A stretch of 49,610 bases of DNA. Source: Escherichia coli (lineage in GTDB: Bacteria; Pseudomonadota; Gammaproteobacteria; Enterobacterales; Enterobacteriaceae). The notes below the pieces were generated by a model, which was given only the letters and a program-made list of their open reading frames with translations, was not told where the DNA came from and searched no databases. Made by a program: the position numbers and the translations under genes. The DNA is taken from the NCBI GenBank assembly GCA_036348995.1, contig GCA_036348995.1_4855.1. One strand, given 5' to 3'. This document shows, piece by piece, positions 20,990-48,165 of this stretch. The stretch's first letter is position 1. Each line of letters begins with the position of its first letter.

Positions 20990-21073
20990 CAGGGCATCAT
21001 TGAAGTGAATACGGCAGGCGGTGATGAGTCGCTTTTCGGGTGCCCCCTAGCCGCATTAATTATTATAAATCAG

Positions 21074-44411: not shown

Positions 44412-44440
44412 TTGACACCTGCAAGGCGGTGATGTAGATT
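44412..44440 (+). promoter_or_regulatory. sigma70-like promoter TTGACA-N17-TAGATT
   Basis: exact spacing; GGTGATGTAGATT block. Confidence 0.55.
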
Positions 44441-44773: not shown

Positions 44774-44805
44774 TATAAACAAGTTATTAACAGTTGAGGT
44801 TAGCT

Positions 44806-45000
44806 ATGGACGTTGTTATTTTGTTGTTTTTCGCTGGATTGGTTATATTTGCTTATCTTCTCCCGTCATTTGTGGCATTGCAAAGAAAGCACACAAATAC
44901 GACTGCAATCTGCGTACTGAATATTCTTGTCGGTTGGAGTTTTATTGGATGGGTTGCAGCACTTGTTTGGGCATTAGTTAACAGTGGCGACAAGAAATGA
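44806..45000 (+). CDS. superinfection immunity (Imm)-like membrane protein
   Basis: two TM helices with ICVLNILVGWSFIGWVAALVWAL pattern; SD GAGGT. Confidence 0.5.
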   Translation: MDVVILLFFAGLVIFAYLLPSFVALQRKHTNTTAICVLNILVGWSFIGWVAALVWALVNSGDKK

Positions 45001-45352: not shown

Positions 45353-46069
45353 TCAGGATACAGTGCACGCCGTGCTGATAATAATTTCAGGGTCAGTAGA
45401 TGAGTCTGTCACCGTGACGGTATACACGCCAGCGGTAGGGCTTGCCAGAGATGCGCCAGATTCGCCTCCTACAACCACACCATCTTTGCGCCATACATAA
45501 GTGTAAGGAGAGACACCACCTTCAACAGCAACGGTTAACGGTCTGCCAGCAGTGCCAGTTGATGGCAGGTCGGTGGTGAATGCCAGAGGTTCAAGGCTTT
45601 CGACGGTAACGCTGTCAGAATCGTAAACCTTGAACTCAAGGCTACCAGTTACGATGTCGTTAGTGCCACCTTCATAGCTGATACTGGTGATGTTGCAGTA
45701 CGCAGTAACGATAGTCGCACCAGTCACCTGACGCACCCACAAGGAAGGCTGGCGACGCGCTTTCAGTTCAGTGGCGTAAATTTCAACCAGACGATGGAAA
45801 CCAAACTCATCGCTCGGGTCATTCTTGCGGATTTCAACCTCTGCACTGATGGTCATATCAGAGCTGGTAACGAGAGTGGAAACAAAGCCGCCAGTGGTAT
45901 CAGCTTCCGACGTGGTAGTCTGCGGGGAGTAGTCAACGCCTTTACTGGTGGTTGAGCCTAAATACTTCCAGTCTCCTGCTTCCGGAACTGCGTCGCCGCA
46001 CCCTTCAGCAAGGAACAGTCGGGTCATGCGACCGACCAGAACGCCTTTATCATTTGCACAAATAGCCAT
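45353..46069 (-). CDS. major tail protein with C-terminal Ig-like domain
   Basis: 238 aa; C-terminal GVYTVTVTD Big-like segment; position upstream of chaperone and tape measure. Confidence 0.65.
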   Translation of the reverse strand: MAICANDKGVLVGRMTRLFLAEGCGDAVPEAGDWKYLGSTTSKGVDYSPQTTTSEADTTGGFVSTLVTSSDMTISAEVEIRKNDPSDEFGFHRLVEIYATELKARRQPSLWVRQVTGATIVTAYCNITSISYEGGTNDIVTGSLEFKVYDSDSVTVESLEPLAFTTDLPSTGTAGRPLTVAVEGGVSPYTYVWRKDGVVVGGESGASLASPTAGVYTVTVTDSSTDPEIIISTACTVS

Positions 46070-46208
46070 TTCGATCTCCGAATTGTGTTAGCTGCTAACG
46101 TGGTGATTATATCACAGCAGTATAAGCAACCTTGCTTGTCACGATAAGCAGATTGATTTGATGAGTTTGTGTTGATGTAGATAATGGAGTTAAACAAAGG
46201 AGGAAATC

Positions 46209-46880
46209 ATGAACGCATTAATGAATGTTGGTAAAGTGCAAACCATGTCAAGCCGTGAGATTTCGGAGTTGACCGGGAAACGGCATGACAATGTTTTGGC
46301 TGACATACGAAAAATGTTAGCTGAAATTCAATCTCCTGAAAAGTTAGGAGATTACAAAGACAGCAGAGGGCGCACGTATCAAATGCTTCTTTTGGATAAA
46401 GAGGAAACGTTAATCCTGATTTCAGGGTACAGCATAAAAATGCGCGCGGCTATCATCCGGCGCTGGCAGGAACTGGAATCACAAGTGAGCAAACCAGCAC
46501 TACCTGATTTCACCAACCCGGCGGAAGCTGCGCGTGCGTGGGCCGCTGAGTACGAACAGAAATTAATTGCGCAGGAGAAGCTATCGATAGCAGCACCAAA
46601 AGCCGAGGTTTATGACCGCATCATCGACCGAAACAATCTTTACAATGCAACACAGGTTGCACAGAAGTTTGGACAGTCAGCAGTATGGCTAAACAGACAG
46701 CTTGAGCAATTCGATGTGTACAATCGCTCTGTTAAGCGTGGACGAGTCTTCCAGCAATGGTTCATCGACAAAGGATACGGCATTATGCGCGAGACAGAAA
46801 CAGGGCACTCACAAGCTATGTTTTATGCTGAAGGAGAGATGTGGATTATCGGCAAGCTAACTGACGAAGGCTTGATTTAA
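46209..46880 (+). CDS. antirepressor (Rha N-terminal domain + KilA-C/AntC domain)
   Basis: SSREISELTGKRHDNVLADIRKM; C-terminal AQKFGQSAVWLNRQL...WFIDKGYG. Confidence 0.75.
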   Translation: MNALMNVGKVQTMSSREISELTGKRHDNVLADIRKMLAEIQSPEKLGDYKDSRGRTYQMLLLDKEETLILISGYSIKMRAAIIRRWQELESQVSKPALPDFTNPAEAARAWAAEYEQKLIAQEKLSIAAPKAEVYDRIIDRNNLYNATQVAQKFGQSAVWLNRQLEQFDVYNRSVKRGRVFQQWFIDKGYGIMRETETGHSQAMFYAEGEMWIIGKLTDEGLI

Positions 46881-46888
46881 CATCATAG

Positions 46889-46917
46889 TTGACAGTGATT
46901 ATTTTGTGGTGTAGATT
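46889..46917 (+). promoter_or_regulatory. sigma70-like promoter TTGACA-N17-TAGATT driving leader and tRNA
   Basis: exact consensus spacing; no terminator between it and the tRNA. Confidence 0.55.
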
Positions 46918-46924
46918 TGGATTT

Positions 46925-47287
46925 AACAGAGATTGGTTCCCTGATTTAATTTAATTACAGCCAATCCTTCAATTACAATTAGCGGTCGAGAGACGCCGGA
47001 CGCGTAACCGGCACACAACAGGTAAGAGCATTGGGTAATGTCAGCCTTGGTTCGAAGTTGAAAGACATGCGGTAATACCCAGCCCAAGTTCCAGTGCTCT
47101 TTCCGTTGAGGTGAATGAGCTAGATGGTGATGTAAAGGCTCACCATGGCGACGAATGCAGTCCGGGATAGCACCGGACACCACAACACTTAATATCCAGC
47201 ATTATCGCAATCATATGTAGGGGTATGTATGGGTTACGGGGCTGGGTGTTAAGAAAGCACGCTGGCAATGCTTAAACCAGCACTTAT
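46925..47287 (+). ncRNA. candidate structured leader RNA upstream of tRNA
   Basis: about 360 nt without convincing ORF; local hairpins such as GCCGG-ACGCGTAA-CCGGC. Confidence 0.25.
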
Positions 47288-47364
47288 GGACGCGTAGCTT
47301 AATTGGTTAAAGCAACCGAATCATAATCGGATGATTGAAGGTTCAAATCCGTCCGTGTCCACCA
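47288..47364 (+). tRNA. tRNA with anticodon CAU (Met or Ile2-type), CCA encoded
   Basis: hand-folded cloverleaf: 7-bp acceptor stem, D-arm GCTT/AAGC, anticodon loop ATCATAA, T-loop TTCAAAT. Confidence 0.75.
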
Positions 47365-47369
47365 AATTA

Positions 47370-47396
47370 AAAGCCGCTTTATGCGGCTTTATTTAT
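47370..47396. terminator. bidirectional intrinsic terminator
   Basis: hairpin AAAGCCGC-TTTAT-GCGGCTTT plus T-run. Confidence 0.7.
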
Positions 47397-47767
47397 TTCA
47401 CAACACGCAAAAGCAACTCATGCACAGGGCGCTTCTCTTCCGTCAACATTGGTCGTCCGAGAGGAGCCTGCAACTGGATGTAGTTAACGCATGAATCAAT
47501 CGGATGGGTTTTGATGTATTCGATAATCTCCAGCGCCTTCGCATCAACATCCGACACGTTATATTGCCCTTGTTTGCCTACAACATACAGCGAAAAATAG
47601 AAGTCACCGCCGAGGTCATCCATAACCTGCGTTCCGCCGTTGGATTGCAGGACAATAAATTGCTCGTTTCCGTCTCCGGTGTCATTCCAGAACTGCAACT
47701 GCGAAGTCCAGCCATCATACAATCCTGCATCCTGAAGATATGCATCAACCAGTTCAAGCATATTCAT
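47393..47767 (-). CDS. tail terminator / tail completion protein (putative)
   Basis: position upstream of major tail gene. Confidence 0.4.
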   Translation of the reverse strand: MNMLELVDAYLQDAGLYDGWTSQLQFWNDTGDGNEQFIVLQSNGGTQVMDDLGGDFYFSLYVVGKQGQYNVSDVDAKALEIIEYIKTHPIDSCVNYIQLQAPLGRPMLTEEKRPVHELLLRVVK

Positions 47768-48165
47768 TAGAGTGTCATCTCCTTCTTAATCACGCCATCA
47801 ACAAGGTCTTTTGTGCGCTGCGCTGCTTTGGTCAGGAATTGTGGCTCCCCTCCCGGACTCCAATATGTGCCATTGCCGTTGCTACGCGGTTTGCCTGCAA
47901 GTTTTCCGCTGGCGTTATGGACGTACAGCGCATATTTTGCAGAGTAGCCAACCTTGCCAGTGATTCGCGTTCCGCTAACTTCCACGGTGTCAAACTGACT
48001 GTTAATCAGAGTCGATGTATCAATCGGCGTCAACGTGGCTGATTCGGTGCGGATGATGTATGTCGCTGACTTGATTGCCCTCACCGCTTTTTCTGCCGTG
48101 ATAGTGCCGACTATCTGCTCAGTTTTCCGAATCGCCTCCTGAATGCCCCTTAATTTCGCTGGCAT
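47767..48165 (-). CDS. neck protein (HK97 gp10-like, putative)
   Basis: position and size. Confidence 0.4.
   Translation of the reverse strand: MPAKLRGIQEAIRKTEQIVGTITAEKAVRAIKSATYIIRTESATLTPIDTSTLINSQFDTVEVSGTRITGKVGYSAKYALYVHNASGKLAGKPRSNGNGTYWSPGGEPQFLTKAAQRTKDLVDGVIKKEMTL

Follow-up and report, generated by a model that had tools for sequence, protein, structure and literature searches.

A putative non-coding RNA unit upstream of a phage tRNA(CAU) gene, with a hairpin shared with bacteriophage lambda

What is made from several hundred nucleotides of phage DNA that lie between a promoter and a tRNA gene and encode no plausible protein? The question is raised by a stretch of 49,610 nucleotides from Escherichia coli (assembly GCA_036348995.1, contig GCA_036348995.1_4855.1; hereafter the window, meaning the whole stretch of DNA that was analysed), in which a promoter-like site is followed by a long leader, a tRNA gene with anticodon CAU and a terminator. 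An initial annotation proposed that the leader might be a processed non-coding RNA, a degenerate tRNA array, or a regulatory leader. Comparison with related phages makes a processed non-coding RNA the best fit of the three, its processing being predicted, and speaks against a regulatory leader. In our judgement the odds lean modestly toward positions 46889-47399 forming a self-contained non-coding RNA operon, the precursor of small stable RNAs and a tRNA, with a central stem as its processing stalk.

The evidence that carries this reading begins with a hairpin in the leader, referred to here as the frame hairpin, whose two strands enclose a variable insert:

47014..47033, plus strand: 5' strand of the frame hairpin, reading CACAAC, a bulged A, GG, U and AAGAGCAUUG; placed by covariance model R1
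47092..47110, plus strand: 3' strand of the frame hairpin, reading CAGUGCUCUU, U, CC and GUUGAG; contains one A-A mismatch (relatives have GUUGUG)

The frame stem is composed of 6 base pairs, the bulged A, 2 base pairs, a 1x1 mismatch and 10 base pairs, giving 18 pairs around the insert, and the arms ACAACAGGTAAGAGCATTG and CAGTGCTCTTTCCGTTGTG flank the shared block. Covariance model R1, built from nine hand-trimmed examples, produced a single full-length match in the window (47010-47114; 54.2 bits, E = 3e-12, one non-standard pair). Across its 101 matches in 100 sources, 98.5% of cells were paired and compensatory changes were present in 12 of the 18 pairs, the result for which the initial annotation had proposed a covariance check across related phages. 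None of 500 shuffles was as good, and controls in which the partner was slid were 38-61% paired. The R1 alignment was fitted to the model, which favours the structure; diverged copies (loci L112, L094 and L022) were visible by eye beforehand. The Jedunavirus copy (phage phiYH65) contributes four further compensatory pairs.

The stem also contains a conserved U-G pair, 11 G-U variants, the fixed bulged A and a fixed U-U mismatch, which together argue for pairing at the level of RNA and not for a DNA repeat. A scan of viral contigs with the 5' arm returned at least 120 loci, and among the loci listed the arms were nearly unchanged around inserts of 35-171 nt, comprising 102 distinct sequences that we grouped into ~50 unrelated types. 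Imperfect 20-bp inverted repeats around a variable insert of 35-171 bp, with cassettes exchanged exactly at the borders, are also what would be expected if the repeats bounded a miniature transposable element, or made up a recombination site, with the cassette as cargo. We consider a DNA-level element of this kind very improbable, as G-U and U-G pairs and a conserved bulge and mismatch fit an RNA and not a protein-bound DNA repeat, the frame and its neighbouring tRNA lie on the same strand in 40 of 40 pairs, and no target-site duplication was seen on reading the flanks. Conserved arms alone explain the exchange of cassettes, through short-homology recombination. In two IMG/VR contigs (L098 and L117) the frame begins 3 nt past tRNA-Thr in an array of the order Asn-Tyr-Thr-frame-Ser, like a tRNA gene in its slot.

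The same hairpin is found in bacteriophage lambda (NC_001416, ~44,788-44,864), directly after the tR' terminator of the pR' 6S RNA, and is unannotated both there and in 163 E. coli genomes. The lambda and window copies have the same stem sequence on both strands and the same bulge and mismatch, and are matched by the same covariance model. They differ in their cassettes, which measure 37 nt in lambda and 58 nt in the window, and in their setting: the lambda hairpin is part of the late mRNA leader under pR'/Q and has the sense orientation there, whereas that of the window belongs to a separate promoter-terminator unit antisense to tail genes. Lambdoid prophage contigs also carry the frame hairpin after tR'-like terminators. 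In bacterial genomes the frame arm was found in Enterobacterales. The lambda hairpin additionally appeared in species-representative genomes of unrelated bacteria (Pseudomonas, Shewanella, Oceanobacillus, Bradyrhizobium and others; L140, L164, L175 and ~25 more loci); these arm matches outside Enterobacterales, on contigs of ~48.4-48.5 kb or on tiny low-coverage contigs, are very likely lambda contamination of the assemblies. Rfam gave no match to the lambda hairpin region, and a literature search found no paper on the stem sequence. As judged by its distribution and covariation, the frame hairpin is a widespread RNA family that is uncurated and has no entry in Rfam.

The second line of evidence is the conservation of the unit to which the frame hairpin belongs, which is bounded as follows:

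46889..46917, plus strand: sigma-70-type promoter, TTGACA-17-TAGATT, with a match at 10 of 12 positions; predicted
47288..47364, plus strand: tRNA with anticodon CAU (47322-24) and an encoded CCA; called by ARAGORN and by Rfam (RF00005, 60.2 bits vs a gathering score of 29)
47370..47399, plus strand: intrinsic terminator, a stem at 47370-47390 followed by a T tract; adjoins the stop of the minus-strand tail terminator gene

Transcription would be expected to start at ~46924. Sites of the 10/12 type occur 4 times in 2 kb, compared to 3.1 expected, so the promoter match alone is not significant. When the intergenic region was aligned for the window, LPSTLL (Segzyvirus), LPST10 (Skatevirus), HC6 and Aeromonas phage pIS4-A (Roufvirus), both promoter hexamers were invariant across the five phages and the flanks diverged; the promoter type is also present in many relatives. 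The predicted promoter is found where the initial annotation had placed it. The annotation had also described ~360 nt with no credible open reading frame (ORF), and this too agrees with what we find: the ~370 nt between promoter and tRNA hold none, the only ORFs within 46918-47287 being on the minus strand (86, 42 and 29 aa), and the 86-aa and 42-aa frames have no Pfam or PHROGs match. The terminator that it reported after the tRNA is called at 47370-47390, and pairing in its stem is kept in relatives, with compensatory differences.

BLAST against phage genomes matched the region in ~170 phage records. The whole unit, from promoter to terminator, is kept between the same tail genes in Skatevirus-, Segzyvirus- and Roufvirus-like siphoviruses, and so the earlier view of promoter, RNA, tRNA and terminator as one unit is borne out across phage genera. 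Within the unit the tRNA is variable. In LPSTLL, LPST10, INT59 and Bas78 the RNA is followed by a terminator only. HC6 and seszw have the same tRNA body with anticodon AAT, L101 and PSH-1 have that body with CAT, pIS4-A carries a tRNA-Arg and a tRNA-Met at the site, and NX263 a tRNA-Ser and a tRNA-Arg. The position of the leader 5' of the tRNA, in one predicted transcript, would suit an attenuator or sensor that controls synthesis or maturation of the tRNA, as the initial annotation had allowed. That reading is largely refuted and we give it almost no weight, as the same RNA and its terminator are kept with no tRNA in the four phages just named and precede different tRNAs in other relatives, and Rfam searches of the leader at E values up to 10 matched no riboswitch, T-box or cis-regulatory leader family. 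Since the RNA is retained where the tRNA is absent or swapped, it is not a leader that serves the tRNA, and the upstream RNA is itself the conserved product; by this comparison the tRNA appears to be a passenger in an RNA operon. The locus was also retained in all listed genome-reduction mutants of seszw, but that study was aimed at annotated genes only, so its retention there is no guide to essentiality.

The insert of the window, at the apex of the frame hairpin, is a cassette with the following proposed structure:

47034..47091, plus strand: apical cassette of 58 nt, a proposed pseudoknot; P2 pairs 47034-37 with 47076-79 and P3 pairs 47038-42 with 47064-68
47051-54 with 47059-62, plus strand: small hairpin of the cassette, UUCG with YGAA
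47046-50 with 47084-88, plus strand: pseudoknot stem of the cassette, CUUGG with CCAAG

This cassette is 92-98% identical, with sharp borders, in Lastavirus, Gamaleyavirus, Jedunavirus and Skatevirus-like phages, which are at least four unrelated genera. It is present in 13 viral contigs, from isolates of at least four named genera and from two other contig types, and no copy of the allele was found in 185,579 species-representative bacterial genomes. Rfam, its self-cleaving ribozymes included, gave no match to it. Eight variants of the cassette contain one compensatory change in the pseudoknot stem (U-A to C-G), three wobble-preserving changes in P2 and one in the small hairpin, and two changes at unpaired positions; this pattern is suggestive, and the cassette probably folds as a pseudoknot. 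The fold also accounts for a T-loop-like sequence that the initial annotation had pointed out. The segment GGTTCGAAG at 47049-57 is split between the pseudoknot stem and the small hairpin and hence forms no T-loop: in a T-arm test (5-bp stem, 7-nt UUCRANY loop), GGUUCGAAG had no matching 3' strand, its GG being part of the pseudoknot stem and its UUCG pairing with UGAA. Other cassette alleles show internal compensatory changes in our reading of their sequences. One allele (L084, 7921-7967, minus strand; also in L111) resembles a type I hammerhead with all core bases, at 24.7 bits compared to a gathering score of 34 (E = 0.003). That many discrete, conserved alleles move between unrelated phages with shared hosts suggests a role in interaction with the host, and the cassette may act there, for example in counter-defence or in manipulation of translation or RNA metabolism.

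The remainder of the leader is a chain of further hairpin modules:

46931..46966, plus strand: module M0, hairpin of GAUUGGUU (46931-38) with AGCCAAUC (46959-66) and an A/U-rich loop; from the minimum-free-energy fold
46981..47012, plus strand: module M1, GNRA hairpin GUC-GAGA-GAC (46985-94), then GCCGG-ACGCGUAA-CCGGC (46995-47012), directly 5' of the central stem
47119..47149, plus strand: module M3, hairpin of AUGGUGA (47124-30) with UCACCAU (47140-46); from the fold
47160..47182, plus strand: module M4, hairpin GUCCGG-GAUAGCA-CCGGAC, then ACCA; from the fold
47183..47285, plus strand: module M5, conserved 3' domain; an extended, irregular hairpin of 47188-47200 with 47241-47253, and GCUGG (47261-65) with CCAGC (47277-81)

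As a whole the leader folds somewhat better than shuffled sequence (z = -2.7 on the plus strand, -1.65 on the minus strand), and with the covariation of its central stem this chain upholds the earlier description of a structured, non-coding RNA. Among relatives the leader is swapped block by block, and each block has its own set of matching phages: 46977-47033 is shared with Sashavirus and others, and 47010-47112, at 92-98% identity, with Lastavirus, Gamaleyavirus (N4-like), Jedunavirus and Skatevirus-like phages. Changes on both strands of M0 in seszw/L109 preserve its pairing (G-C to G-U, U-G to C-G), and the M0 5' domain is found in the Skatevirus type only. The GNRA hairpin of M1 reads GCC-GAGA-GGC in LPST10, a compensatory difference; M1 is also present in Sashavirus, CF-SP1 and Kpn BU9 phages and in L049 and L094, and in other arrays its slot is filled by a hairpin with a different stem and a GAUUAAUAA loop. 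The region of M3 (47115-47154) recurs at ~92% identity in Klebsiella phages SBP and SCNJ1-Y and at 95% at unannotated sites of 6 E. coli chromosomes, and is partly common to L039 and L047; M3 is another module that moves independently of the others. The M4 slot is filled in relatives by GCCGG...CCGGC-C-ACCA, or by other small hairpins with (N)CCA-CAACAC after them; to our eye the hairpin-ACCA of M4 resembles a tRNA 3' end. M5 is near-identical in HC6, LPSTLL, LPST10, NX263, INT59, PSH-1 and Bas78, whether a tRNA or a terminator comes next, and its inner hairpin AUAUGUAGGGGUAUGUA is also found in the N4-like phage ShWW44. An H-type pseudoknot at 47255-47281 (AAGCA...UGCUU crossed with GCUGG...CCAGC) was rejected, as its first stem is broken in both informative variants, L112 and Bas78. 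Rfam has no family for the leader modules, whether searched with the leader (E up to 10), the whole window, the lambda region or the relatives.

Such modules raise the degenerate tRNA array that the initial annotation had listed, in which the leader would be a non-functional remnant of tRNA genes, transcribed only for lying between a promoter and the surviving tRNA. Several observations fit. Relatives such as seszw, INT59 and PSH-1 have tRNA-like remnants at the same place (e.g. GGCGACA...GCAGGUUCGAUUCCUGUCGCCA), hairpin-ACCA motifs occur (47160-82), some cassettes contain T-arm-like hairpins, and frames are known from inside tRNA arrays. However, a decaying sequence would be expected to drift and suffer deletions, and these modules have sharply defined borders and 92-98% identity between unrelated genera. 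Selection for pairing acts on the central hairpin, with compensatory evolution in a stem whose sequence is near-invariant across very distant phages, and the same RNA is kept where no tRNA comes after it. We regard decay as improbable for these reasons; what survives of the earlier proposal is that the leader is made of non-tRNA modules of a kind found within phage tRNA arrays, with tRNA-like remnants in some relatives.

The tRNA itself was confirmed by the two checks that had been suggested for its cloverleaf at 47288..47364, an ARAGORN call and an Rfam match of 60.2 bits. Its CAU anticodon had been left to initiator, elongator Met or Ile2. Initiator tRNA-fMet has an unpaired 1/72 position and three consecutive G-C pairs at the base of the anticodon stem; the tRNA of the window is excluded from this class by its G1-C72 pair and by its anticodon stem, which reads A-A, C-G, C-G, G-C, A-U and lacks the three G-C pairs. 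Elongator tRNA-Met has U4:A69 and U29:A41. The body of the window tRNA carries A73, C4:G69, U12:A23, C29:G41 and A37/A38, which we take to be identity elements of E. coli tRNA-Ile, and all of its weak matches in E. coli genomes are genes annotated as tRNA-Ile. The body was compared with those at L006 1620-1696, L109, L132, L101 and L135. The anticodon loop is polymorphic on this one body: AUCAUAA in the window (47320-47326), CUCAUAA in L101 and PSH-1, and CUAAUAA, with anticodon AAU, in HC6 (L006 1620-1696) and seszw. Sister alleles with AAU would be usable by IleRS alone, which favours Ile2. Codon usage in the window points the same way: one Ile codon in five (20%) is ATA, which stands at 13.5 per thousand codons, and AGA and AGG are also frequent. 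Of the three options, Ile2 is the best supported, and the tRNA is probably a tRNA-Ile2 that reads AUA, with conversion of C34 to lysidine by TilS and charging by IleRS predicted.

Under the reading that we favour, a constitutive-type promoter would transcribe ~475 nt up to the intrinsic terminator, on the strand opposite the tail genes and between those for the major tail protein and the tail terminator. The predicted transcript would consist of autonomous hairpin modules followed by the tRNA, the modules being drawn from a pool that enterobacterial phages exchange horizontally, usually inside or beside tRNA arrays. The ~18-bp interrupted stem would act as a stalk for double-strand-specific processing or recognition, most likely by host RNase III; a cut there would divide the precursor and set the 58-nt cassette free, or leave it exposed, as a small stable RNA. 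The tRNA would be freed by RNase P and 3' trimming, and as a tRNA-Ile2 it would serve the frequent AUA codons of the phage. The cassette would be a variable, selected payload.

Several points weigh against this account. The unit is known here from its sequence, its transcription and processing being predicted, and a part in counter-defence is conjecture. The link to RNase III is drawn from the geometry of the stem and from a lambda study, in which Daniels et al. (1988, Virology 167:568; reference 49 of PMC7547250) reportedly located RNase III processing sites in the late leader in vivo; those sites may coincide with the lambda hairpin. Interrupted by a bulge and a U-U mismatch, the ~18-bp stem is on the short side for RNase III, with the proposed P2 and P3 stacked on top of it. 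The near-invariance of the stem sequence, beyond what pairing needs, suggests a sequence-specific partner. The cassette pairs are contradicted by one mismatch in ShWW44, and their structure rests on eight variants and one compensatory pair, while variation in M5 is too small for a covariation test. In folds of the lambda late leader the hairpin is present in the centroid and absent from the minimum-free-energy structure, which is not decisive.

Known systems offer partial parallels. The frame stem can be compared with the RNase III hairpins of T7 early mRNA and of rRNA operons, which likewise separate the functional RNAs of a polycistronic precursor and consist of roughly two helical turns of interrupted duplex that include a mismatch; it differs from them in that its sequence is conserved far past the needs of pairing, its apical part is a conserved, structured payload, and its cleavage is predicted. 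T4 species 1 and 2 (rnaC/rnaD), small, stable and structured RNAs other than tRNA that come from one precursor with the tRNAs of the T4 cluster, resemble the unit as it is read here. No T4 record was among the matches listed in the phage searches, and a design of scaffold plus cassette with exchange between families is not known from T4. The ileZ gene of Stx phage 933W (promoter pT) also has anticodon CAU, a similar anticodon arm and T-loop, its own upstream promoter and a place in the late/structural region, but it has only a short leader and no frame hairpin.

The orientation of the unit relative to its neighbours raises another possibility. The flanking genes are:

45353-46069, minus strand: major tail protein gene
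46209-46880, plus strand: Rha/Ant anti-repressor gene (Pfam Phage_pRha + ANT)
47393-47767, minus strand: tail terminator gene
47767-48165, minus strand: tail completion gene

A strong plus-strand promoter that fires against the minus-strand late operon could cause transcriptional interference, or its RNA could pair with read-through late mRNA and so tune the tail genes. In Skatevirus-like phages and in Jedunavirus the unit always runs against the flanking tail genes, the terminator is called on the plus strand only, so that late transcripts may cross the locus, and the antisense RNA STnc6030 inside structural genes of prophage BTP1 is a precedent (PMC7067206). Against such a role, the same modules occur in the sense direction in late leaders of lambda and lambdoid phages and in tRNA regions of N4-like phages, the locus overlaps no coding sequence, and neither selection for intramolecular pairing nor cassette exchange would be needed; we judge it as doubtful as the decayed array.

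The Rha/Ant gene, with its own promoter-like site (46117-46888), is an insertion exactly between the conserved ...TATATCACAG and the -35 of the RNA promoter, and it is missing from relatives. A second plus-strand promoter of the same type, TTGACACCTGCAAGGCGGTGATGTAGATT, is located at 44412-44440 upstream of a block of small ORFs and is kept in at least five related contigs. Rfam places an int-alpA RNA at 20994-21057 on the minus strand (40.1 bits vs a gathering score of 35.8).

Sister loci contain, under the same promoter, a second kind of RNA element. In HC6 (L006 1109-1300), L007, L002, L084, L131, L194, Bas78, pIS4-A and many contigs, there is a 10-codon frame of the tmRNA tag type, AUAAAU-GCA-AAC-GAU..., with no in-frame start codon. 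Its consensus is AN(D/E)(D/E)xxL(M/A/I)(A/V)A plus a stop, and ten alleles were found, synonymous changes included (ANDDVVLMAA, ANEEMYLAVA, ANDEQFLAVA, ANDDQFLAVA, ANDDLMLMAA, ANDDVVLIAA, ANEERFLMAA, ANEEAYLMVA, and two with synonymous codons). The stop is in the loop of a helix-5-like hairpin, whose sequence varies while its pairing is kept; beyond it lies a pseudoknot with covariation in both stems. The same arrays come right after tR' in lambdoid prophage contigs, where the 3' strand of a frame hairpin runs straight into the tag domain. The tag region gave sub-threshold Rfam matches of 18-31 bits to tmRNA_permuted and beta_tmRNA, covering the tag part only. A tRNA-like domain, as defined by an acceptor stem with G3-U70, a T-arm and a CCA end, was found neither by ARAGORN in 1.1 Mb of loci nor by Rfam in the complete HC6 genome. 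The portion of a 2025 tmRNA database paper that was consulted describes forms without a tag frame, and the converse form does not appear in it (PMC11915505).

These loci make it conceivable that the RNA of the window is a tag-less derivative of a phage tmRNA-like RNA, descended from a permuted gene and still acting on ribosome rescue or its factors. Such a descent would fit HC6, Bas78, pIS4-A and others, in which this locus and promoter come with tag frames, a helix-5-like hairpin and a pseudoknot that covaries, and with their resume-codon context AUAAAU-GCA these sister loci resemble the two-piece (permuted) tmRNA of betaproteobacteria. However, the sister loci lack the tRNA-like domain, and the window has none of these parts: the unit contains no tag motif AAATGCNAAYGA, and the window yielded no ARAGORN tmRNA call and no Rfam tmRNA match. 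The 5' hairpin of the window was considered as a homologue of the post-tag pseudoknot, and the idea was dropped, as its alignment score equalled that of shuffled sequence (z = -0.1) and the M0 5' domain has no significant similarity to the HC6 tag domain. We consider descent of this kind less probable still than decay or an antisense role.

A broader reading, which we offer as a speculation with a small chance of being right, is that of an RNA toolkit common to enterobacterial phages. Its base would be a conserved stalk, for which the helix that connects the parts of a permuted tmRNA-like RNA is a possible ancestor. On this stalk effector cassettes (pseudoknots, hammerheads, tRNA-shaped inserts) could be interchanged, and they would be traded between unrelated phages as anti-defence weapons or tools for reprogramming translation; the RNA of the window would be an active member with a widely shared allele. 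In sister phages the cassettes sit beside tmRNA-type tag frames that have no tRNA-like domain.

Returning to the operon reading that we favour, the interest of the locus is in the RNA upstream of the tRNA and not in the tRNA itself. Annotators usually treat phage tRNA regions as tRNAs among junk, or fill them with spurious small ORFs, as in several GenBank records of this very locus; minus-strand 'hypothetical proteins' have been placed over the non-coding locus (L005 1649-1816, L131 936-1600, L133 749-862, L134 810-923) and are probably spurious. The 'junk' of phage tRNA regions holds an RNA family that is supported by covariation and reaches as far as lambda, although Rfam has no entry for it. 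Its design is that of a scaffold with a cassette, and the cassette comes in dozens of alleles that are passed between unrelated phages.

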